The position numbers and the translations under genes were made by a program. The notes below the pieces were generated by a model that saw nothing but the letters and a program-made list of their open reading frames with translations, was not told the origin of the DNA and did not search any database. A stretch of 33,101 bases of DNA, taken from an uncultured Coriobacteriia bacterium. GTDB lineage: Bacteria; Actinomycetota; Coriobacteriia; Coriobacteriales; QAMH01. The stretch lies in contig CABURF010000001.1 of NCBI GenBank assembly GCA_902493755.1, positions 1 to 33,101 of the forward strand. Reading direction: 5' to 3'. Below, one piece after another: positions 5,037 through 29,414 of this stretch (position 1 is the stretch's first letter; each line of letters opens with the position of its first letter).

Positions 5037-5615
5037 CTATGCCGGACGCTGGTTTCTGAAGCTGTCGACACCCTTTTGCCACTCCAGACTTGCCTTGGCA
5101 GCAGCATAGGCAGTATCGCGAAGCTGGTCATTCTCGATGTGGGAGAGTGCTTCTTCAAGTCCCGAAAGCTCTTCTTCATCAAGTGCGACAGGTTGAGCTT
5201 TGCGGTAATCCTCATCCTCGGCTTCGAGGAGCTGGAGTGTCGTAAGACGACGCTCGCGAGCGGCATATTGCTCTTTTGAGACCTTGAAGGTGAGCTTCTC
5301 GACTTGCTCGGCCTTCCTCATGACATTGGAAGGTTCATCGGCGTCTTTGTTAAGTTCTATGTTGAGGTTGAGTCGCAAAAGCTCTGATTGCATGTTGAGT
5401 TCTGTCGCCCAAATAGAACTGTCGACGTATACGATAACCTCACTCGCTGCGGTGTTAGGTACGACGAAAACCGCGGTGACATGCTCGGCAATGCGCTTGT
5501 CGACAGATAGGTTCCAGGCGCGTTTTACCCGTGCCGTCGCAGAAAGATCGGGGTTGTTACGTTGGAGGGAACGAACGACTCCCTCTATCTCCGAACCAAT
5601 GTCATACCCCGTCAT
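5037..5615 (-). CDS. DUF721 (DciA-like) protein, the conserved actinobacterial gene between recF and gyrB
   Basis: The ORF occupies the recF-gyrB slot held by DUF721/Rv0004-type genes. The N-terminal part (RAWNLSVDKRIAEHVTAVFVVPNTAASEVIVYVDSSIWATELNMQSELL) fits DUF721, and the C-terminus is an acidic/coiled tail. The ATG at 5615 is preferred (GGGGG 6 nt upstream); the ORF is open to 5633. Confidence 0.75.
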   Translation of the reverse strand: MTGYDIGSEIEGVVRSLQRNNPDLSATARVKRAWNLSVDKRIAEHVTAVFVVPNTAASEVIVYVDSSIWATELNMQSELLRLNLNIELNKDADEPSNVMRKAEQVEKLTFKVSKEQYAARERRLTTLQLLEAEDEDYRKAQPVALDEEELSGLEEALSHIENDQLRDTAYAAAKASLEWQKGVDSFRNQRPA

Positions 5616-5713
5616 CACACACCCCCATGCCATGTTTATGTTCGTTTAGGTGCTTGATTCACTATAACGCATCAGAGGGCGCTGCATCGATAGAGATTTC
5701 TCGACTGTGGTTA

Positions 5714-8101: not shown

Positions 8102-8327
8102 GTTTCTCTCTCCCCTATTATTATTAGTTCTTATTTATATATATCTAATAATCATAATAAGACAGGTGAATTAGTGGAAAACTTCTTTTCTACCAGTTCA
8201 ACCCCTCTTTTCCGATTGACGTTTCTTGTCGAAAACCGATTGCGTTATCAACAGATATTTTAGCGGGTAAAACTTATCAAGAGTTCCTCAACCTTCTATT
8301 CACTGGTTTTCTACGGGGTTATCCACG
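8102..8327. promoter_or_regulatory. oriC part 2: dnaA-dnaN spacer with an AT-rich unwinding-element candidate and DnaA boxes
   Basis: An almost pure A+T run lies at about 8116-8160. DnaA-box-like 9-mers are TTATCCACG (8319-8327), TTATCAACA (8245-8253) and AGTGGAAAA (8173-8181, rc TTTTCCACT). Confidence 0.7.
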
Positions 8328-9808
8328 TTAGCAACGCTCCTGGATGATCAATGTCAGCTGTTCGAGCTGGTCAAATAGTATCCGATTGTCTTTCTGGTCC
8401 CGCTCTATCTTGTTTACGCTGTGCATGACCGTCGTGTGGTCACGTCCCCCGAACTTCTTTCCGATTGACTCGAGGGACTCTTCCGTCATGTAACGGGAGA
8501 GGTAAATTGCGATATGGCGTGGGGTCGTGATGCCCTTGTAGCGCTTCGACGAAATCATGTCCTCGTGCGAAACCTTAAAGAAGCGCTCCACCTCGCTTTG
8601 GATGAGTGCGATGTCGATTTTCTTGTCCTGTATGGTCGGGAAGAAATCCTGGAGCAGTTCCTGGGCTTCCTCGATACTGATGCTGTTCTTCTTCAGCAAA
8701 GTCATGTTGCTCACGAGACGCGTGATGGCGCCTTCCATCTCTCTGATGTTTGAAGTCGCAACCTCTGCAAGGTATCCGAGCACGTCATCGGGGATATTTC
8801 CGTAGAAGCTCGTGTGTTGGTTCACGCGCGATAGGTAGTTTTTCAAGATGGCCAGGCGCGTCTCGTAGTCTGGTGGTTTGATGTCTGCGAGCAGACCCGA
8901 GATGAAGCGCGAACGCATGCGGTCGTCCATGTCGATGTCTTTTGGGGCGCGATCTGCAGAGAGCACGATTTGCTTGTTACGTTGAAGATGTTGAACAGCT
9001 GATTGATGGTTTCGTCCTTACCCTCGAGGTATTGGACGTCATCGACAAGCAAGATGTCTACCTGGTGATATTTGCTGTTGAAGGTCCCCCATTGGTTACG
9101 CTGCGTTGCCTCGACATAGTCGTTGAGGAACTTGTTAGCCGATACGTATCGCGTGGCCATACGCGGGAAGTTTTGCATCGCGTAGTTTGCGATTGCGACG
9201 AGCAAATGGGTCTTTCCCAAGCCCGAGTTCCCGTAGATGAAGAGCGGGTTATATGCGATTCCCGGTTGCTCTGCGACGGCGAGGGCAGCACCCCGGGCAA
9301 ACTCGTTTGATTTGCCCACGACGAAGGTGTCGAAGGTGCACTTTGAAAAGAGCGCCTCCTCCCCGCTTGTGGGGGATGAAGCATATTCTCCTCCCATACG
9401 CTCGGCTTCCTCGGCAGCGGGCATGGTTGAGGAGGGGGTATGGTTTGAAATACTCGATGGGTCGACGAATTGATTCATCCAGTCTGGTTCGGCTTGCTGC
9501 ACCGGCTCTTGTGTTGTTGTGACCTGCATGTTTGTTGCTTGTTGCTGGGGTACGTCTTTTTGCGTGTTGACGCCAAGCCCGATGCTTATTGGAGTGCCCG
9601 TGACCTGGAGAAGCTTTTCCTGCATTTCTCCAAGGTAGTTCTTCCTTACCCATGATTCGACGGGCGTACTCTCTGCAAGGAGAACGAATTGATCCCCAAA
9701 GACCCCAACGGGAGTAAGAAGATTCAGGAAGACGGTCTTTGGATCCTCTTCATCTGTATTTTCGAGAAGGAGGGCGAGTGTCTTGCTCCAGATTTCGTCT
9801 TTGTCCAT
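8328..9808 (-). CDS. dnaA: Chromosomal replication initiator DnaA, interrupted by a 1-nt frameshift near 8973-8984 as assembled
   Basis: Two overlapping ORFs (8843-9808 and 8328-8966) together give a full DnaA. The first carries domain I, Walker A (GNSGLGKTHLL) and Walker B (LLVDDVQYL). The second carries LSADRAPKDI, RLRSRF-like MRSRF and domain IV (GGRDHTTVMHSVNKIE). One added base restores a 493-aa reading frame. Confidence 0.9.
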
Positions 9809-9818
9809 CTCAAAAACC

Positions 9819-10571
9819 CTATCTGCTCAGGAATGCCAGGCCCTGGTTGGTCAGCATTCGCTTCTTTCCGCCCTCGGTCTTCTGAAGAAGGCCCATCTTC
9901 TCGAGCTTGTTAAGGGCGCGATGTCCTGTTGCGAGGCTTATATCGAGGTTCTGCTCGACTTCCGTCGGTCCGATGAGGCCCATTTCTTGGGCCAAGATAA
10001 GAATATTGTATTCTCGTTCTGAAAGGTCTTGGTCTATGTTCTTCTCCTGGCTTGGCATTTCGCGGTATACGACGGGAGTTGCCTGCGGAGTGCTTTTGTC
10101 GACTTGGATTGTGACAACGGTACCCTCTTTGATGTTGTCCTCGATGATAAGCCGTCCATTCGAAAAGCGCAGGTAATCCTTCACCGTTGGTAAACCCGAT
10201 CCGACTCCGCGTATATATTTGCGCATCTCCGTCGTCGCCGAGGTGAAACCAGGAAGCTGAGCATGCTGTTTGTCGGCAATGCCAGGTCCCTGATCGGTGA
10301 ATTTGATTGTGTTTCCATTATCGAGAATCGAGATGCAAGGATCGCGGAACTGCGCATGGATGAAGTTCTCGCAGACTTCCTTTATAACGGTATAGGGAAT
10401 TGAGCTCCCCTTTTGCTGGGCCAGCTCGTATGTCTTAGATGCGATTTCTTCAATGTATTGTGAGATATCTGTTGGCTGTATATCGATGACACGAGGTGCT
10501 GCAAGAAGATCATCGTATATTGCGATGCGCGTGGGGGTAAGCGCAGAGATGTCAGTTTCGAGGTTTCCCAT
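9819..10571 (-). CDS. GHKL (Bergerat-fold) ATPase domain fused to a C-terminal winged helix-turn-helix; first gene of the dnaA operon
   Basis: 250-aa ORF with N-box IKEVCENFIHA, G1 FTDQGPGI, G2 RGVGSGLP, then GTVVTI. Residues about 183-250 (LSEREYNILILAQEMGLIGPTEVEQNLDISLATGHRALNKLEKMGLLQK) resemble a MarR/TrmB-type wHTH. AAGGA lies about 9 nt upstream of the ATG. The stop is 10 nt before the dnaA ATG. Confidence 0.7.
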   Translation of the reverse strand: MGNLETDISALTPTRIAIYDDLLAAPRVIDIQPTDISQYIEEIASKTYELAQQKGSSIPYTVIKEVCENFIHAQFRDPCISILDNGNTIKFTDQGPGIADKQHAQLPGFTSATTEMRKYIRGVGSGLPTVKDYLRFSNGRLIIEDNIKEGTVVTIQVDKSTPQATPVVYREMPSQEKNIDQDLSEREYNILILAQEMGLIGPTEVEQNLDISLATGHRALNKLEKMGLLQKTEGGKKRMLTNQGLAFLSR

Positions 10572-11201
10572 ATTTAGCTGTTCCTTTTCATCATTTATGG
10601 AAACCGGCAGTTATCCACAAACAAAACCACCATTGACAAGAGGTTAGAGTAGCAAATAACCGCACGAAACCAAATTTTTACCACACTAAATGAAAAACTC
10701 TTCACATAGTTTATCAGGTGTTTTCATAGTTATACACATTATTTTCCACCTATGTTGATAAATCAGGGAAAATTGAAAAAAGTAATGGTGAAAAATGAAT
10801 AAAAAGATGATGTCAAGTTGAAAAACGCAGTACAGAGAAAAAGAATCAATTAGTTTTACACGTACAGATGTTCTTTGATGTGGAAAACTTTTATCCCATT
10901 GAGGAAAGAAGATATTTGTTTCTGGAAAACGGTATGTAAAAAAGAAAAAAGGGAGGAAAAAGGCTAAAAGGATGGGGAAAACACTATATACCTGTGTAGA
11001 AATTAACCACTTATCCACAGTTTCAATAAAGACACGCGCAGAGAATGTGAATAACTTGGGAATAAACCAAAGTGCCTGTTCACGGAGATTTATAGTGATT
11101 GAATTGAGTCGTAAAAAATCCTTGACTCGCCATTCTTAACCATATTACAATTTTGAAGCTTATCGAGAAGTATAAGGGAGTTTCCCTTAGGAGGAATTGT
11201 A
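10572..11201. promoter_or_regulatory. oriC part 1: AT-rich DnaA-box cluster between the ATPase-wHTH gene and rpmH
   Basis: Perfect TTATCCACA boxes lie at 10611-10619 and 11011-11019. One-mismatch boxes are TTATACACA (10730-10738), TGTGGAAAA (10879-10887) and TGTGAATAA (11046-11054). A purine-rich tract spans about 10938-10981. A possible rpmH promoter is TTGACT (11122-11127) / TACAAT (11146-11151). Confidence 0.8.
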
Positions 11202-11336
11202 ATGAAGCGTACATATCAGCCCAATAAACGTAAACGCGCAAAATGTCATGGTTTTCGCTCTCGTATGGCTACGCGTGGTGGTCGTAACGTTCTCAAGGCC
11301 CGTCGCGCAAAGGGCCGTAAGTGTCTGACGGTCTAG
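11202..11336 (+). CDS. rpmH: 50S ribosomal protein L34
   Basis: 44-codon ORF, below the ORF-track cutoff, read by hand: [50 protein letters not shown] lies 7 nt upstream. It sits in the canonical position upstream of rnpA. Confidence 0.95.
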
Positions 11337-26425: not shown

Positions 26426-29335
26426 TTAGACACCGCCTGGTTCCTGCGTCTCCATGAGACGCGCAATCTCACTAATAGTAAGGGTTCGAATATCCTGCGT
26501 TGGCATGGCACGCAGGAAGGACTTAGCGTAGTTCTTGGTTTGTAGACGCGCGTCTGCGAGCACGAGCCAGCCGCTGTCGGTCGAGTTGCGGATGAGACGC
26601 CCAGCGGCCTGCTTGAGATCCATTACGGCTTCGGGCAGCGAGTAGCGTCCCCAGGCCGCGCGACCATTACGCGCCTCGCGCTCGCGAGCGATGGGGTCAT
26701 CAGGACGGCTGAAGGGGAGGCGTGCAATGACAACGCAACGTAGGGTATCACCCGGAGCGTCGAAGCCCTCCCAGAAGGACTTGAGCGCGAACATAGACAG
26801 GTTCCTGTCTGACAGGAACCTGTCGCGTAGTGACTTCGTGCTCGTGCCACGCGTCTGCGCGATGAGGTCGATGCCCTCATTGGCGAGACGTGGCTTAAGT
26901 TCACGATAGAAGTTCTCCATCTCGCGGCGGTTTGTGAAGAGGGTGAGCACCGAGCCGCCCATCGCAACGTGGACCTCATAGAGCAGATGCGCAAAGGCCT
27001 CATGATAATCCGGCGCGTTGGGCTCGGGCATGTCGCTTGGCAACAGCACGGACATGTTGTGGTCGTAGTCGTACCCCGATGCGAAGATGCTCGTGTAGAC
27101 GGGCTTGTCCGTCACGCGATCGAGCCCCGTTGCGCGTAGGAAGTGCGCAAAGGGCTCGCGTTCGGCGGTGGCGAGGGTGGCCGAGGTAAAGACGAGACTG
27201 CATGTTTGCGGGTAAAGGTCCGCGGCTAGGGATTCGCCGATGTCGAGGCGCATGGCCTCGAGGGCCTGCATGGGATAGCGCGGATTGCGGTCGATCTGCA
27301 GCGACGTGACGTAGCGTTCGTCCGTGCCATCGAGGATGAGGCGAAGGGCATCGACGGCTCCCTTGATGTTGGCAGTGATGCTCGAGAGCTCGGCGAGTTG
27401 GTTGACGAACTCACCCTCAAATTGCTCGAGCATGGAGATGAGGTCGGCAAGGCGTCCGTTGAGGCCCCAGAGCAAATCGGCAAGTTTGGTACCGGGTGCA
27501 CAGAGCTCGCGCCAGGCGCGCCCTTGCCGCACTTCGCTGCTAATCCAAACGGTGACAATGTTGTAACTGCCTCTATCGCGCGCGCTGGGGGAGGGAAGCT
27601 CGGCAAGCGCCGTGAAGAACTCTGCAGCAACCAGTTGAATTTGGCCGATACGGTTTTCGATATCGGCCGTTACGCCATAGAGCATGTCGCCACCCTCGAG
27701 CCTGTCGGCACGCTTGCGTACGCGCGCCACGATGCCGCTCTTTGGGTTGGAGAGGTGGCCGAGCATGGTGTCGAGCTCGCGTGAGGTGATCGAGTTCGAG
27801 AGTTGGCGACGTGCCTCACCCTCGACGCCGTGCGCCTCATCGATAATCCAATGCCTAATAGGGGGCAAGATACCATTGTCGGTCTGCATGTCGCGGAACA
27901 GTAGCGCGTGGTTGGTGATGACGATGTCGGCGCTAGTGGCAGCCCGACGCGCTCCGTGCAGGAAACAACGCCGCGGGAAGTATGGGCAGCGCTTCTTGAG
28001 GCAGTCGTTGGCGTTTGCCTGGATATCATTGCGTGGTAGGCGCACCCAACTAATATTTAGTGCGTCGAGATCGCCGTGACTCGTTTGTGCTGTGAAGTTG
28101 AGGAGCGTTGCGATCATGCTGATGACATCGCAGTTGTCACCCTGGTCTGCGCGTGCCATGTGCTCGAGCTTGCGCAGGCACAGGTAGTGGTCATAGCCTT
28201 TGAGCGCAACATAGGAGAGATTTCCGCCAAGCACGCTGTTAAGACGGGGTAGTTCGTGGTAGACGAGCTGATCCATGAGGGCATTGGTTTTCGTTGCAAC
28301 GCCCATGGTGACCTTGTTCTCGTGGGCGCCAAAAGCGACAGGTACCAGGTAGGCCATCGACTTTCCGACGCCCGTACCCGCTTCGATGACGCGAATGTCA
28401 CCCTCGCGCAGGCACGCGGCAACTTCATGCGCCATGTCGAGCTGTTCCTGGCGCTCCTCGTACTCGGGGTACATTGAACCCAAGATGCCGGTGGGGGAGA
28501 AGGCCTCGTCGATACGGCTTTCATTGCAAAACGTGAGCGGGATGTCGTCAGCGTCGGGGCGTGGGGGCAGGGCGGCGCCCTGCGTGCGTTCGGTGCGATT
28601 GCGGCGTAGCGAGAAGTCGACGCCAGGATGCTCGAGCGCGGCCTGCGCGAAGTAGGGACGCAACGGCCAGTCGGTCTGCGGGGAAAGATCGGCGATACGG
28701 GCTGCAAGACCAGGGGTCATCGCCTGGATGCCCGCGAGGAGCATGCGCCATAGGGCGCCGAGGGCAACGGTGTCATCCATCGCACGGTGGGTGGGTGTTG
28801 ACAGGCCGAATGCGCCGGCAAGGTCGAGGAGACGATGTGACTTGAGGCGCGGCAAGACGATTTGCGACAACGAGAGTGTGTCAACCCATTGTCCGAGTAA
28901 GTCGCCGGGACTGGCCTGGCGCATGATGAACTGTTGGTCGAAACTTGCGTTATGCGCGACGAGGTTGCAATCACCTGCAAACTTCGCAAACGCCGCGACA
29001 GCTTCGCGTGGGGTGGGGGCACCGACAATGTCTGCTTGGGTAATGCCCGTGAGCTCGGTGATTTCGGGTGGAATGGCGCGCCCAGGGTCTACGAAGGTCT
29101 GGAACGTATCGACGGTTTCGCTCCCACGCATGCGGATGGCGGCAATCTCGAGCAGCGAGCAGCTGGAGGGGTTGAGTCCCGTGGTCTCGGTATCGAGTAC
29201 GACGACCTCGTCCTCGATGAGGCCAAACTGAAGCTCGTGGGCTCGCTCGGGGAGCTGACGGTACATGTTGGAGACATCGTCATCAGTACCCGCAATGAGG
29301 AATTCGCTTAGTCGTATTTCACGTGAAACAACCAT
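26426..29335 (-). CDS. dinG: DinG-family ATP-dependent helicase with N-terminal DnaQ-like 3'-5' exonuclease domain
   Basis: Exo motifs VVLDTETTGL, VAHNASFDQQF and HRAMDDTVA. Helicase motifs EAGTGVGKSMAYL (Walker A) and WIIDEAHGVEG (DEAH). A Cys cluster (LCLRKL ... NDCLKKRCPYFPRRCF) is compatible with an Fe-S domain. ATG at 29335, with an in-frame TTG at 29341. Confidence 0.9.
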   Translation of the reverse strand: MVVSREIRLSEFLIAGTDDDVSNMYRQLPERAHELQFGLIEDEVVVLDTETTGLNPSSCSLLEIAAIRMRGSETVDTFQTFVDPGRAIPPEITELTGITQADIVGAPTPREAVAAFAKFAGDCNLVAHNASFDQQFIMRQASPGDLLGQWVDTLSLSQIVLPRLKSHRLLDLAGAFGLSTPTHRAMDDTVALGALWRMLLAGIQAMTPGLAARIADLSPQTDWPLRPYFAQAALEHPGVDFSLRRNRTERTQGAALPPRPDADDIPLTFCNESRIDEAFSPTGILGSMYPEYEERQEQLDMAHEVAACLREGDIRVIEAGTGVGKSMAYLVPVAFGAHENKVTMGVATKTNALMDQLVYHELPRLNSVLGGNLSYVALKGYDHYLCLRKLEHMARADQGDNCDVISMIATLLNFTAQTSHGDLDALNISWVRLPRNDIQANANDCLKKRCPYFPRRCFLHGARRAATSADIVITNHALLFRDMQTDNGILPPIRHWIIDEAHGVEGEARRQLSNSITSRELDTMLGHLSNPKSGIVARVRKRADRLEGGDMLYGVTADIENRIGQIQLVAAEFFTALAELPSPSARDRGSYNIVTVWISSEVRQGRAWRELCAPGTKLADLLWGLNGRLADLISMLEQFEGEFVNQLAELSSITANIKGAVDALRLILDGTDERYVTSLQIDRNPRYPMQALEAMRLDIGESLAADLYPQTCSLVFTSATLATAEREPFAHFLRATGLDRVTDKPVYTSIFASGYDYDHNMSVLLPSDMPEPNAPDYHEAFAHLLYEVHVAMGGSVLTLFTNRREMENFYRELKPRLANEGIDLIAQTRGTSTKSLRDRFLSDRNLSMFALKSFWEGFDAPGDTLRCVVIARLPFSRPDDPIAREREARNGRAAWGRYSLPEAVMDLKQAAGRLIRNSTDSGWLVLADARLQTKNYAKSFLRAMPTQDIRTLTISEIARLMETQEPGGV
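29315..29330. promoter_or_regulatory. parS-like site (15/16 match) inside the first codons of dinG
   Basis: TATTTCACGTGAAACA versus consensus TGTTTCACGTGAAACA. The 14-bp core GTTTCACGTGAAAC is degenerate at one base only (ATTTCACGTGAAAC here). Confidence 0.65.
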
Positions 29336-29414
29336 GTTCAAAGCCTATCATGTTGTAGAGACAAAACACGTGGTCAAATCGGTATACTTGCCAGCAGTCG
29401 ACTGGAGGACAAGC

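Follow-up and report, generated by a model that had tools for sequence, protein, structure and literature searches.

What is the gene that immediately precedes dnaA in the genome of this uncultured gut bacterium of the Coriobacteriia, and could it act on the start of chromosome replication? Restraint of DnaA is known in few lineages, through Hda and SeqA in Proteobacteria, YabA, Soj and SirA in Bacilli, and CtrA in Caulobacter. To our knowledge, it is essentially undescribed for Coriobacteriia, Armatimonadota and many uncultured Terrabacteria. Coriobacteriia include the human gut genera Eggerthella, Collinsella, Slackia and Gordonibacter, and genetic tools exist for E. lenta. Here, we analysed the gene, which we call X, within a window of 33,101 nucleotides (the whole stretch of DNA studied). 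We propose X as a concrete candidate to fill this gap in Coriobacteriia, Armatimonadota and uncultured Terrabacteria, because it combines an apparent dnaA/dnaN-like conservation, a constant linkage to dnaA, a location at oriC, and ATP and nucleic-acid modules. A full-text literature search returned nothing on the X family, and X matched no Pfam or NCBIfam model specific to such a family.

Gene X lies 10 nt upstream of dnaA

The locus comprises the following genes:

9819..10571, minus strand: gene X, a 250-aa ORF with an ATG start, encoding a catalytic/ATP-binding (CA, Bergerat) domain that a linker connects to a winged helix-turn-helix (wHTH)
9809..9818, minus strand: X-dnaA junction of 10 nt, GGTTTTTGAG, with no space for a terminator or promoter
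8328..9808, minus strand: dnaA, second cistron, present here as two ORFs (8843-9808 and 8328-8966)
11202..11336, plus strand: rpmH, divergent to X, with tblastn matches in 76 loci

The TAG stop codon of X occupies 9819-9821, and the dnaA ATG is at 9808. Downstream of X (3'), the window carries dnaA, dnaN, recF, the gene for DciA (DUF721), gyrB and gyrA on the same strand, while rpmH, rnpA, yidD, yidC, jag, rsmG, parA and parB are divergent and 5' of X. The original prediction had placed a 250-aa ORF on the dnaA strand, with its stop 10 nt ahead of the dnaA ATG and no separate strong Shine-Dalgarno (SD) sequence for dnaA, at the head of a dnaA-dnaN-recF-DUF721-gyrB-gyrA string; the coordinates, the junction sequence and the gene order in the window all agree with it. 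X itself carries AAAGGAA, located 8 nt 5' of its ATG. Ahead of the dnaA start, no GGAGG-type SD was seen, the best candidate being a weak AGGG that overlaps the X stop codon. A terminator scan revealed nothing terminator-like between X and dnaA, the sole such site being inside X (10511-10527), and a promoter scan of the X strand, which gave no convincing consensus promoter, was uninformative on this point. The X-dnaA junction is operon-like, and we infer that both genes are co-transcribed.

In the window, a 13-nt gap near 8981 breaks the dnaA reading frame into its two ORFs. This split is probably an assembly artefact, because it is called likewise in a low-coverage contig (L090, 2.9x coverage) and an independent contig (L091) stops precisely there.

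X adjoins dnaA in at least four phyla

The X family comprises ~300-440 clusters at 50% identity, and our searches gave 913 and 2406 homologues. Its hosts are Coriobacteriia, MAGs of other Actinomycetota, MAGs labelled as Bacillota/Clostridia, Armatimonadota and Ca. Sysuimicrobiota; many of the source genomes are MAGs, several of them with wrong taxon labels. In 88/88 loci with downstream sequence, from at least four phyla, X immediately precedes dnaA and shares its strand. These are 79/79 GTDB species loci and 9/9 loci from 7 divergent proteins; the GTDB loci inspected were the best 80 of at least 585 genomic loci, and synteny exceptions may exist. The linkage that a synteny survey had been suggested to look for is far stronger than expected. 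The gap between both genes in the other loci is mostly 3-50 nt, and in two of them (L036 and L039) the stop and start codons overlap (ATGA).

The X-dnaA cassette is inverted as a unit, relative to rpmH and dnaN, in 8 loci. Since the 8 loci are not one another's closest relatives, the inversions point to several independent flips, none of which parted X from dnaA. Because it is present across at least four phyla, the arrangement looks old rather than a novelty of Coriobacteriia, and the earlier description of X as "inserted" between the oriC boxes and dnaA is misleading.

In a comparison biased by the choice of its 83 loci, which were picked by similarity to X, mean identity to the window proteins was 48% for X, 39-45% for DnaA, 44% for DnaN and 43% for YidC, suggesting that within such loci X is about as conserved as DnaA and DnaN. 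A mobile or defence origin of X was rejected, as plasmids and viral contigs yielded no relatives, and the matches in the searches for defence systems (PADLOC) and in PHROGs reflected only generic wHTH or kinase similarity.

DnaA boxes flank the X-dnaA pair on both sides

Next to X and dnaA, four noncoding features were recorded:

10572..11201, no strand: rpmH-X spacer, AT-rich, with the upstream DnaA-box cluster and the presumed X-dnaA promoter region, recognised by GC content and boxes
8102..8327, no strand: dnaA-dnaN spacer, AT-rich (GC 0.33), with a second DnaA-box cluster (boxes at 8245 and 8319)
10611..10619, plus strand: perfect DnaA box, TGTGGATAA when read along the strand of X, ~45 nt ahead of the start of X
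10730..10761, no strand: triple DnaA-box module (-> <- <-) made of TTATCAACA, TTTTCCACC and TTATACACA, conserved, with 11-12 nt spacing

Searching the 33-kb window for TTATCCACA with at most one mismatch gave 10 sites, 8 of which fall within the two spacers. The rpmH-X spacer, with a GC content of 0.30-0.41 vs 0.50-0.58 in the coding flanks, holds two perfect DnaA boxes and four further box-like sites. Across 79 loci, the density of boxes was 4.2/kb in both spacers vs 0.18/kb in coding DNA (~24-fold). Because the clusters flank the pair on both sides, X and dnaA together lie, judging from the boxes, inside a bipartite oriC. The proposal that X parts dnaA from the upstream cluster therefore holds for that cluster, which is indeed upstream of X, but not for the origin as such, as the second cluster is at the dnaA-dnaN spacer.

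Parts of this region are conserved. In an alignment of related Coriobacteriaceae loci, the block TTGTGGATAACT is followed by ATGAAAAGG, the ribosome-binding site, and a promoter-proximal DnaA box is located at -46 to -55 in the window (WIN) and in loci L001-L004 and L015. The triple module, whose TTATCAACA box is at 10753-10761, includes the core variant TT(A/T)TCAACA, which is ~90-fold enriched. The same module, in the form of a plus and a minus box separated by 23 nt and frequently enclosing a third one, recurs in many loci from several phyla.

In 90 upstream regions, k-mer counts and positions, together with an alignment of close relatives, were analysed for an operator of X: only DnaA-box variants were enriched, and no independent palindrome emerged near X. 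The core variant TTTTCAACA is intriguing but cannot be assigned to X. Rfam models detected no known RNA elements in the spacers, and only tRNAs elsewhere in the window.

X carries a complete catalytic (CA) domain of the histidine-kinase type

The structure of X was modelled with AF2 from a 79-sequence alignment. This model (mean pLDDT 85.5, with both domains at ~90 or higher) was preferred over an earlier one built from 22 sequences (pLDDT 71). It confirmed, together with profile and Foldseek searches, both parts of the GHKL-plus-winged-HTH architecture that had been proposed from the translation:

10092..10541, minus strand: CA domain of the histidine-kinase type, complete (aa 11-160), from Pfam, AF2 and Foldseek
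10026..10091, minus strand: disordered, non-conserved linker (aa 161-182, pLDDT 49-58)
9822..10025, minus strand: winged HTH (aa 183-250, pLDDT 89-96)

The Pfam model HATPase_c (PF02518) matched aa 60-159 of X with 37.4 bits (cut-off 26.4, E 3.7e-9), and it was also above its cut-off in 10/10 homologues scanned. The Bergerat motifs follow each other in the order that had been read in the translation, with the N box as E65..E68-N69..H72 plus A73, G1 as D93-Q-G-P-G97 and G2 as G122-V-G-S-G126. Across 79-80 sequences of the family, residues E68, N69, H72, D93, G95, G97, G122, V123, G124 and G126 never vary, and E65 is at least 90% conserved, with Gln at this position in one clade (P0084, P0087 and P0093). 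This set covers Coriobacteriia, other Actinomycetota, and MAGs labelled Bacillota/Clostridia and Armatimonadota, Sysuimicrobiota being represented only in the 80-sequence version of the alignment. Conservation of this strength, seen at the level of sequence, is a mark of selection on the ATP site. The ATP lid carries P107-G-F109, and a family-specific N-terminal strand has Y19 and P26 invariant and A17 and D20 near-invariant (D20 at least 90%).

The predicted fold of the CA domain is an alpha/beta sandwich with an ATP lid (b14-18, b27-31, H36-53, H60-72, b79-83, b88-92, lid, H126-136, b139-145, b151-157), with a pLDDT of ~90 in the core and lower values at the lid (95-125). Residues 1-59 were considered as a separate N-terminal domain, which was rejected because in the AF2 model a CA domain of normal size begins with their strands and helix. 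A Foldseek search of the PDB gave 150 matches at E<=1e-3; the 50 matches listed were CA/GHKL domains of the histidine-kinase type, except for four DIP2311 chains. HK853, CpxA, CheA P4, BCKDK, the GHKL domain of NifL and DIP2311 (3lmm) were among the proteins matched, and a profile match was obtained with the CA domain of KinB. By profile, ordered motifs and predicted fold, X is a member of the GHKL/Bergerat-fold superfamily.

A winged helix-turn-helix ends the protein

The linker between both domains is 14-74 aa long in the 79-sequence alignment, and in some lineages it extends to ~300 aa rich in Q/P/G/Y (P0239 and P0267 are such long-linker members). Apparent extra domains in P0139, P0173, P0194, P0239 and P0267 proved to be low-complexity Q/P/G/Y-rich extensions or linkers with no Pfam domain, and the "membrane protein" label of homologue P0158 was due to an over-extended ORF start.

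A winged HTH had been expected at about residues 183-250, and the AF2 fold places it there, with helices H185-197 and H202-209, the recognition helix H213-225, the wing b229-231/b238-240 and a final helix H242-249. The C-terminus of X gave ~12 sub-threshold Pfam matches to winged-HTH families (IclR, MarR, TrmB and DeoR), and homologue P0139 is above the cut-offs for HTH_24, HTH_IclR, TrmB, MarR, MarR_2 and DeoR. Profile matches included AdcR and FabT of the MarR family, MntR, and the wHTH of Csa3. Two stretches are conserved, S212-x-S/A-T215-A-Y/H-R218 and K237-R238-x-L-T241. The pattern suggests selection on T215, R218, K237, R238 and T241, at positions that typically contact DNA in winged HTHs, and is compatible with DNA binding. 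However, the domain is not basic (median net charge 0; pI 6.8 in the window protein), and because of this it could mediate protein contacts instead.

X differs from the known families that it resembles

X has the same fold as the CA domains of histidine kinases (HK853, CpxA, EnvZ, KinB and CheA P4), which provide its best sequence and structure matches. They have in common the N-box Asn with a basic residue at N+3, DxGxG, a lid containing F, and GxGxG. Unlike histidine kinases, X has no DHp/HisKA, phospho-acceptor His, sensor, transmembrane (TM) segment or cognate response regulator, and it carries a wHTH fusion and the family-specific N-terminal strand. The absence of DHp and TM segments had been anticipated: no HisKA-type profile matched X even at E<=10, AF2 shows strand-strand-helix and no helical hairpin, and the maximum Kyte-Doolittle mean over 19 residues is 0.73, with no TM segment. 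H72, part of the N box, is the sole His that does not vary, and no response regulator was found near X in the window and related loci, where the neighbours are rpmH and dnaA. Lacking a DHp, a phospho-acceptor His and a response regulator, X was rejected as a classical two-component histidine kinase.

The original prediction had likened a ~160-aa ATPase module to SpoIIAB/RsbW, a label also used in IMG automatic names. X resembles these proteins in being a stand-alone GHKL module without DHp, but a wHTH fusion is not known in their family, and the module, of ~150 aa, is of the histidine-kinase type. TIGR01925 scored 16.2 bits vs a cut-off of 135, HATPase_c_2 (PF13581) gave no match at E<=10, and no STAS anti-anti-sigma or sigma factor partner was present in the window or in annotated related loci. 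We thus rejected X as a SpoIIAB/RsbW homologue on profile scores and on the missing partner-switching neighbours.

The top Foldseek match was DIP2311 of Corynebacterium diphtheriae (3lmm; E 3e-7, TMq 0.46-0.52). As the alignment spans ~260-280 columns, the match must reach beyond the ~150-aa CA domain of X. The resemblance is structural only, with an identity of 12-14% and DIP2311 being twice as long. DIP2311 belongs with the COG2865-type putative regulators, built of AlbA_2, HATPase_c_4 and an HTH, and neither HATPase_c_4 nor AlbA_2 matched X; DIP2311 has an extra Schlafen/AlbA_2 domain, and it is not known to have an assigned function or a linkage to dnaA.

NifL uses a GHKL domain of the histidine-kinase type, which has no kinase activity, to sense ADP/ATP status and to control its partner through protein contact. 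This domain matched X in Foldseek (9qq6) and weakly by profile (NCBIfam TIGR02938, aa 21-157, E 1e-3, 17.6 vs a cut-off of 242 bits). NifL differs from X in its PAS and H domains, in the lack of a wHTH and in its target, NifA. Csa3/CasR and the one-component regulators of the MarR/IclR/TrmB kind have, like X, an N-terminal sensing domain and a C-terminal wHTH of the same kind, but the sensor of X is a CA domain and not CARF, and unlike MarR proper X has no dimerisation helices, its wHTH module of ~68 aa ending the protein. With YabA, SirA, Soj/ParA, Spo0A, Hda, SeqA, DiaA/HobA, CtrA, MtrA and AdpA, X has only its proposed role in common. None of the known initiation-regulator families appeared among the Pfam, NCBIfam and PDB search results for X, in line with the earlier remark that such regulators do not have this architecture, and we know of none that carries a GHKL domain or invariably precedes dnaA.

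A proposed role for X in replication initiation

Together, these observations make X a strong candidate for a new chromosome replication regulator. We lean, if only modestly, towards a nucleotide-binding and probably DNA-binding factor that is co-expressed with DnaA and acts on oriC or on DnaA. Our model suggests that X is a soluble two-domain protein encoded by the first, promoter-proximal cistron of a transcription unit shared with dnaA, and that X and DnaA would be made together from a DnaA-box-controlled promoter. X would bind ATP or ADP via its intact N, G1 and G2 boxes, and its nucleotide state would gate what the winged helix does. Most likely, the winged helix would bind DNA at, or close to, oriC or the promoter of X-dnaA; alternatively, it would dock onto DnaA. 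In the target and direction of effect that we infer, X would tune dnaA expression and/or origin firing to the adenylate or growth state, by a one-component logic that joins NifL- or Csa3-like nucleotide sensing to a winged-helix output, with no phosphorelay.

More tentatively, several Terrabacteria (Coriobacteriia, Armatimonadota, Sysuimicrobiota and deep Bacillota-like groups) may share X as a previously unrecognised core partner of DnaA, ancient in origin: an ATP/ADP sensor that would bind the origin or DnaA, or possibly a DnaA kinase, and that would time origin firing. If true, X would be the first GHKL-type initiation regulator, an energy-status checkpoint within the dnaA operon. If X turned out to act on initiation, as a kinase or by sensing adenylates, replication control would gain a new mechanistic class.

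Other readings of the same features have to be weighed. Histidine-kinase-type CA domains are normally phosphotransferases, and X could be a DHp-less protein kinase, BCKDK/PDK- or SpoIIAB-like, which would phosphorylate DnaA or another initiation factor such as DnaN or DciA in trans while its winged helix tethers it to the origin or the substrate. Consistent with this are a CA domain of the phosphotransferase type (HK, BCKDK) whose N, G1, F-like and G2 boxes are all intact, a Glu (E65, at least 90% conserved) four residues before the Mg-binding Asn, the invariant Y19 and the D20 (at least 90%) in the family-specific strand, and the tight co-encoding with DnaA. We consider it unlikely, given that X has no DHp and no invariant His outside the N box, that no STAS, sigma or receiver partner occurs in the loci examined, that position 65 is Gln in the P0084/P0087/P0093 clade, and that SpoIIAB/RsbW models fail on X (TIGR01925, 16 bits vs 135); moreover, we know of no GHKL kinase that regulates DnaA by phosphorylation. 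Rather unlikely, too, is a local transcription factor with no direct action on the origin, either an autoregulator of X-dnaA or a regulator of unrelated genes. One-component regulators do typically have a wHTH of this MarR/IclR/TrmB/Csa3 kind, and autoregulators a promoter-proximal position, but ordinary ones are not ~45% identical across phyla and do not hold one neighbour in 88/88 loci through repeated inversions. No palindromic operator was detectable, and control of dnaA dosage would itself alter initiation.

X might also act on the architecture of the origin and not on DnaA, as an organising or segregation factor that clamps or bridges DNA in an ATP-gated manner (as in MORC, MutL and GyrB, or ParB/Noc-like). 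A GHKL domain joined to a DNA-binding domain follows the logic of MORC/paraMORC, X is inside oriC and near parAB, and the long Q/P/Y-rich disordered linkers of some lineages could promote self-association. Yet the CA domain is of the HK and not the GHL type, there is no transducer domain, the protein is small, and ATP-driven dimerisation is not a known property of HK CA domains, making this reading improbable. Finally, it is very improbable that the linkage reflects historical hitch-hiking in an unusually stable origin gene order, with a function of X unrelated to replication. No X copy was found in another context or on plasmids or viral contigs, the gaps between X and dnaA are very short or replaced by overlaps, and the inversions in 8 loci separate rpmH from X and dnaA from dnaN, but never X from dnaA.

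Gene X lies directly upstream of dnaA within the replication origin

Gene X is the ORF directly before dnaA in the window. It has 250 codons, starts with ATG and occupies 9819..10571 on the minus strand, with AAAGGAA 8 nt 5' of the start codon. Its stop codon (TAG, 9819-9821) is separated by 10 nt, GGTTTTTGAG, from the ATG at 9808, where the ORF for the N-terminal part of DnaA begins. No GGAGG-like Shine-Dalgarno sequence was seen at the dnaA start, where there is only a weak AGGG overlapping the X stop, and no terminator-like site lies in the X-dnaA interval, the sole one reported being inside X. Downstream on the same strand are dnaA, dnaN, recF, the DciA (DUF721) gene, gyrB and gyrA; upstream and divergent are rpmH, rnpA, yidD, yidC, jag, rsmG, parA and parB. 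The original prediction had described this ORF, the 10-nt junction and the missing strong dnaA Shine-Dalgarno, all of which agree with the ORF calls and the junction sequence, and its gene order is correct in the window.

The spacers flanking the two genes carry these features:

10572-11201, rpmH-X spacer, GC 0.30-0.41, with DnaA boxes
8102-8327, dnaA-dnaN spacer, GC 0.33, with DnaA boxes
10611-10619, perfect DnaA box about 45 nt before the X start codon, conserved in related Coriobacteriaceae
10730-10761, triple DnaA-box module (-> <- <-), 11-12 nt spacing, including the core variant TT(A/T)TCAACA (C6->A)

Eight of the ten TTATCCACA-like DnaA-box sites in the window fall within the two AT-rich spacers. 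Across 79 X-bearing loci, box density reached 4.2/kb both upstream of X and downstream of dnaA, against 0.18/kb in the coding DNA that separates these two regions. Thus, with box clusters on either side, X and dnaA together form the insert of a bipartite oriC; in the bipartite oriC of Bacillus subtilis, dnaA alone holds this position. An Rfam search found no RNA family in either spacer.

The ribosome-binding block of X is likewise conserved in related Coriobacteriaceae, and the conserved box before X is consistent with DnaA autoregulating a putative X-dnaA transcript. The triple-box module also precedes X in loci L004, L044, L081 and L085 and in many Eggerthellaceae loci, across several phyla. 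The commonest core substitution is TTTTCAACA, with 63 occurrences spread over 40 of 90 loci, some 90 times the number expected from shuffled sequence; in soil Coriobacteriia-like MAGs the core variant forms the promoter-proximal box, TGTTGATAA-n3-TGTGGA. The TT(A/T)TCAACA variant may be either a weak DnaA box or an X operator; the regions upstream of X showed no operator separate from the DnaA boxes.

X joins a histidine-kinase-type ATPase domain to a winged helix

X is a soluble protein consisting of a histidine-kinase-type catalytic/ATP-binding (CA) domain, a linker and a winged helix-turn-helix (wHTH). The motifs IKEVCENFIHA (E65/E68/N69/H72), FTDQGPGI, RGVGSGLP and GTVVTI appear in the right order, and Pfam HATPase_c matches aa 60-159 (37.4 bits, cut-off 26.4). 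About 12 weak hits to wHTH families (IclR, MarR, TrmB, DeoR, HTH_24) fall in the last 70 residues, each below its cut-off, and several of these families exceed theirs in homologues such as protein P0139. With 79 homologues as input, AlphaFold2 gave a model (mean pLDDT 85.5) in which aa ~11-160 form one complete Bergerat-fold domain, followed by a linker and a winged helix:

aa 14-18 and 27-31, strands
aa 36-53, helix
aa 60-72, N-box helix
aa 79-83 and 88-92, strands
ATP lid, lower confidence
aa 126-136, helix
aa 139-145 and 151-157, strands
aa 161-182, disordered
aa 183-250, three-helix winged HTH, pLDDT 89-96

Since the modeled fold is complete, aa 1-59 are the normal start of the CA domain, beyond the coverage of the Pfam model, and we rejected a separate domain there.

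These results uphold the GHKL ATPase and winged HTH of the original prediction, as well as its view that X has neither a DHp domain nor a membrane segment: no HisKA/DHp model matched, and the most hydrophobic 19-residue window averages only 0.73. The proposed SpoIIAB/RsbW resemblance did not survive. The SpoIIAB model reached 16 bits where 135 are required, so the ATPase module is histidine-kinase-like rather than anti-sigma-kinase-like. Foldseek placed this part of X with the CA domains of HK853, CpxA, EnvZ chimeras and CheA P4, and also with BCKDK, a mitochondrial kinase, and the GHKL domain of NifL. A second group of hits was DIP2311 (3lmm), at 12-14% identity and TMq 0.46-0.52 over ~260-280 aligned columns. 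Among PDB sequences, a profile search returned KinB for the ATPase; for the winged helix it returned MntR, Csa3 and the MarR-family proteins AdcR and FabT. The SpoIIAB analogy should therefore give way to that of an orphan histidine-kinase CA domain.

X belongs to both the GHKL and winged-helix superfamilies, and four narrower assignments were ruled out: two-component histidine kinase (no DHp/His domain, no response regulator), SpoIIAB/RsbW kinase (profile match and required neighbors both missing), MarR family proper (no dimerization helices) and the DIP2311/COG2865 group (neither AlbA_2 nor HATPase_c_4 matched). Searches of Pfam, NCBIfam and PDB revealed no kinship to any known initiation regulator.

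The X family spans several phyla and its ATP site is strongly conserved

With the window protein as query, we found 913 homologues in a 90%-clustered database, and 559 clusters at E<=1e-3 in a 50%-clustered library (442 at E<=1e-10, 308 at E<=1e-30); a distant member as seed returned 2406. Their database names are uninformative ('ATP-binding protein', 'hypothetical'), and neither Pfam nor NCBIfam yielded a family-specific model. Within Coriobacteriia, X occurs in Slackia, Gordonibacter, Eggerthella-like bacteria, Raoultibacter and MAGs labeled Coriobacteriaceae and Atopobiaceae; beyond them, in other Actinomycetota MAGs, MAGs labeled Bacillota or Clostridia, Armatimonadota and Candidatus Sysuimicrobiota. 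Full-text literature searches found no publication on the family; most subscription-journal papers lay outside their scope, and absence there is not proof. X is a new combination of known domains and, as a candidate replication factor, unreported in the literature searched.

Y19, P26, E68, N69, H72, A73, G86, D93, G95, G97, G122, V123, G124, G126, G139, N146, G150 and G244 are invariant in 79-80 X sequences across groups. They cover every ATP-site motif and a family-specific N-terminal strand, a pattern indicating strict purifying selection on the predicted ATP site. The putative contact positions of the wHTH are also conserved, in the recognition helix (S212-x-S/A-T215-A-Y/H-R218) and the wing (K237-R238-x-L-T241). 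Mean identity to the window protein in the same loci was 48% for X versus 39-45% for DnaA, DnaN, RnpA and YidC, so that X is conserved as well as or better than these, in a comparison biased because the loci were picked by similarity to X.

Conservation does not extend to the linker, whose length runs from 14 to 74 aa across the 79-sequence alignment. In P0101, P0113, P0115, P0239 and P0267 it is a Q/P/G/Y-rich low-complexity stretch of 100 to about 300 aa, and P0139, P0173 and P0194 carry similar sequence at the N-terminus. Six long-linker or tailed members scanned (P0139, P0173, P0194, P0239, P0267 and the related P0158) had no Pfam domain in these regions, which may act as flexible tethers or promote self-association.

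Most X-bearing genomes are MAGs, several of them wrongly labeled bins. The origin contigs L004, L006, L015, L033, L041, L050, L057 and L071 carry seemingly wrong labels (Acutalibacteraceae, Bacteroidaceae, Agathobacter rectalis, Alloprevotella, Christensenellaceae, Betaproteobacteria, Aeromicrobium); in X, DnaA and DnaN they share 40-65% identity with the Coriobacteriales window, and these eight contigs are likely mis-binned or mislabeled.

X and dnaA stay together in every informative locus inspected

We scanned one genome per GTDB species, which gave at least 585 X loci, and mapped DnaA, DnaN, RpmH and RnpA by tblastn on the best 80 of these. In 79 of those 80, X is followed by a co-oriented dnaA; L055 is uninformative because the locus ends right after X. 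Seven further divergent X proteins (labeled Armatimonadota, Bacillota, Clostridia or Actinomycetota, or unlabeled) added nine loci, all arranged rpmH/rnpA <- / X -> dnaA -> dnaN. The gap, with start codons chosen mechanically, is usually 3-50 nt; the genes overlap (ATGA) in L036 (Sysuimicrobiota) and L039, and some Eggerthellaceae have gaps of 80-270 nt.

In eight loci (L011, L019, L035, L048, L051, L067, L074 and L080) the order is dnaN <- / X -> dnaA -> / rpmH -> rnpA ->, with the X-dnaA cassette inverted relative to both flanks. By X sequence these are mostly not mutual nearest relatives; L019, for instance, is 70-71% identical to the non-inverted L032, L049 and L066. Thus, the cassette has flipped several times and X and dnaA were never parted, which suggests that the two DnaA-box clusters flanking the cassette have recombined repeatedly. 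X relatives were not found on plasmids or viral contigs.

Among the loci inspected, the linkage is therefore invariable, tight, inversion-resistant and located inside oriC in at least four phyla. The synteny comparison proposed with the original prediction thus favors it (79 of 79 informative loci and 9 of 9 further ones), and the picture of an insertion in Coriobacteriia should give way to an apparently ancient X-dnaA cassette that spans several phyla and is set within oriC.

A nucleotide-gated regulator of dnaA or initiation is the favored model

On balance we lean towards a model in which nucleotide-gated X tunes dnaA expression and/or initiation. X would be co-transcribed with dnaA from a DnaA-box-controlled promoter and would bind ATP or ADP, and its nucleotide state would gate the output of the winged helix, whether the target is DNA of the origin or promoter or DnaA itself, so tuning dnaA expression and/or initiation. 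Within this model, nucleotide binding is the part we hold with most confidence, and a function concerning dnaA or oriC is nearly as probable; DNA binding by the wHTH is reasonably likely. Similar logic is found in NifL, whose GHKL domain reads adenylate status but has no kinase activity, and in Csa3-type regulators, where a nucleotide sensor precedes a wHTH. The observation behind the original prediction is confirmed, and its suspicion of a replication regulator strengthened, apart from the SpoIIAB analogy and the insertion framing.

Three points count against this model: CA domains of the histidine-kinase type are normally phosphotransferases, the winged helix carries no net charge on average, and no operator other than DnaA boxes was found. 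Of the rival readings, that of X as a protein kinase that lacks a DHp domain and targets DnaA or some other initiation factor is unlikely in our estimate. That X is purely a local transcription factor seems slightly more doubtful still, and an ATP-gated protein organizing the origin is improbable. Hitch-hiking of X with dnaA, with no functional link, is the least credible reading, since repeated flips that never separate the two genes are hard to square with a passive passenger.

Split dnaA and other genes of the window

Further genes in the window were:

8328-9808, minus strand, dnaA, split into ORFs 8843-9808 and 8328-8966, break near 8981
5037-5633, minus strand, DciA helicase-operator gene (PF05258), between recF and gyrB
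26426-29341, minus strand, DinG-like RNase_T exonuclease-helicase fusion, 971 aa
31396-32313, minus strand, WYL-domain regulator

The dnaA break corresponds to a 13-nt gap relative to L001, an 83%-related locus (78% DNA identity over dnaA), and falls between the Walker B and sensor I regions. The same split is also called in L090, a gut-metagenome contig of 2.9x coverage, and the independent contig L091 ends exactly at the break nucleotide. The break more likely arose in assembly than through decay of dnaA into a pseudogene.

DciA holds the recF-gyrB position in the window, as it does in each of the four annotated X-bearing loci reaching past recF (L081-L085). Outside Coriobacteriia, the dnaA-side string adds an S4_2 gene, with a RemA-like gene where the locus is long enough. 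The observations on this gene string come from the window, L081-L085, L088 and L089. The DinG-like fusion and the WYL regulator look like ordinary housekeeping or regulatory genes.
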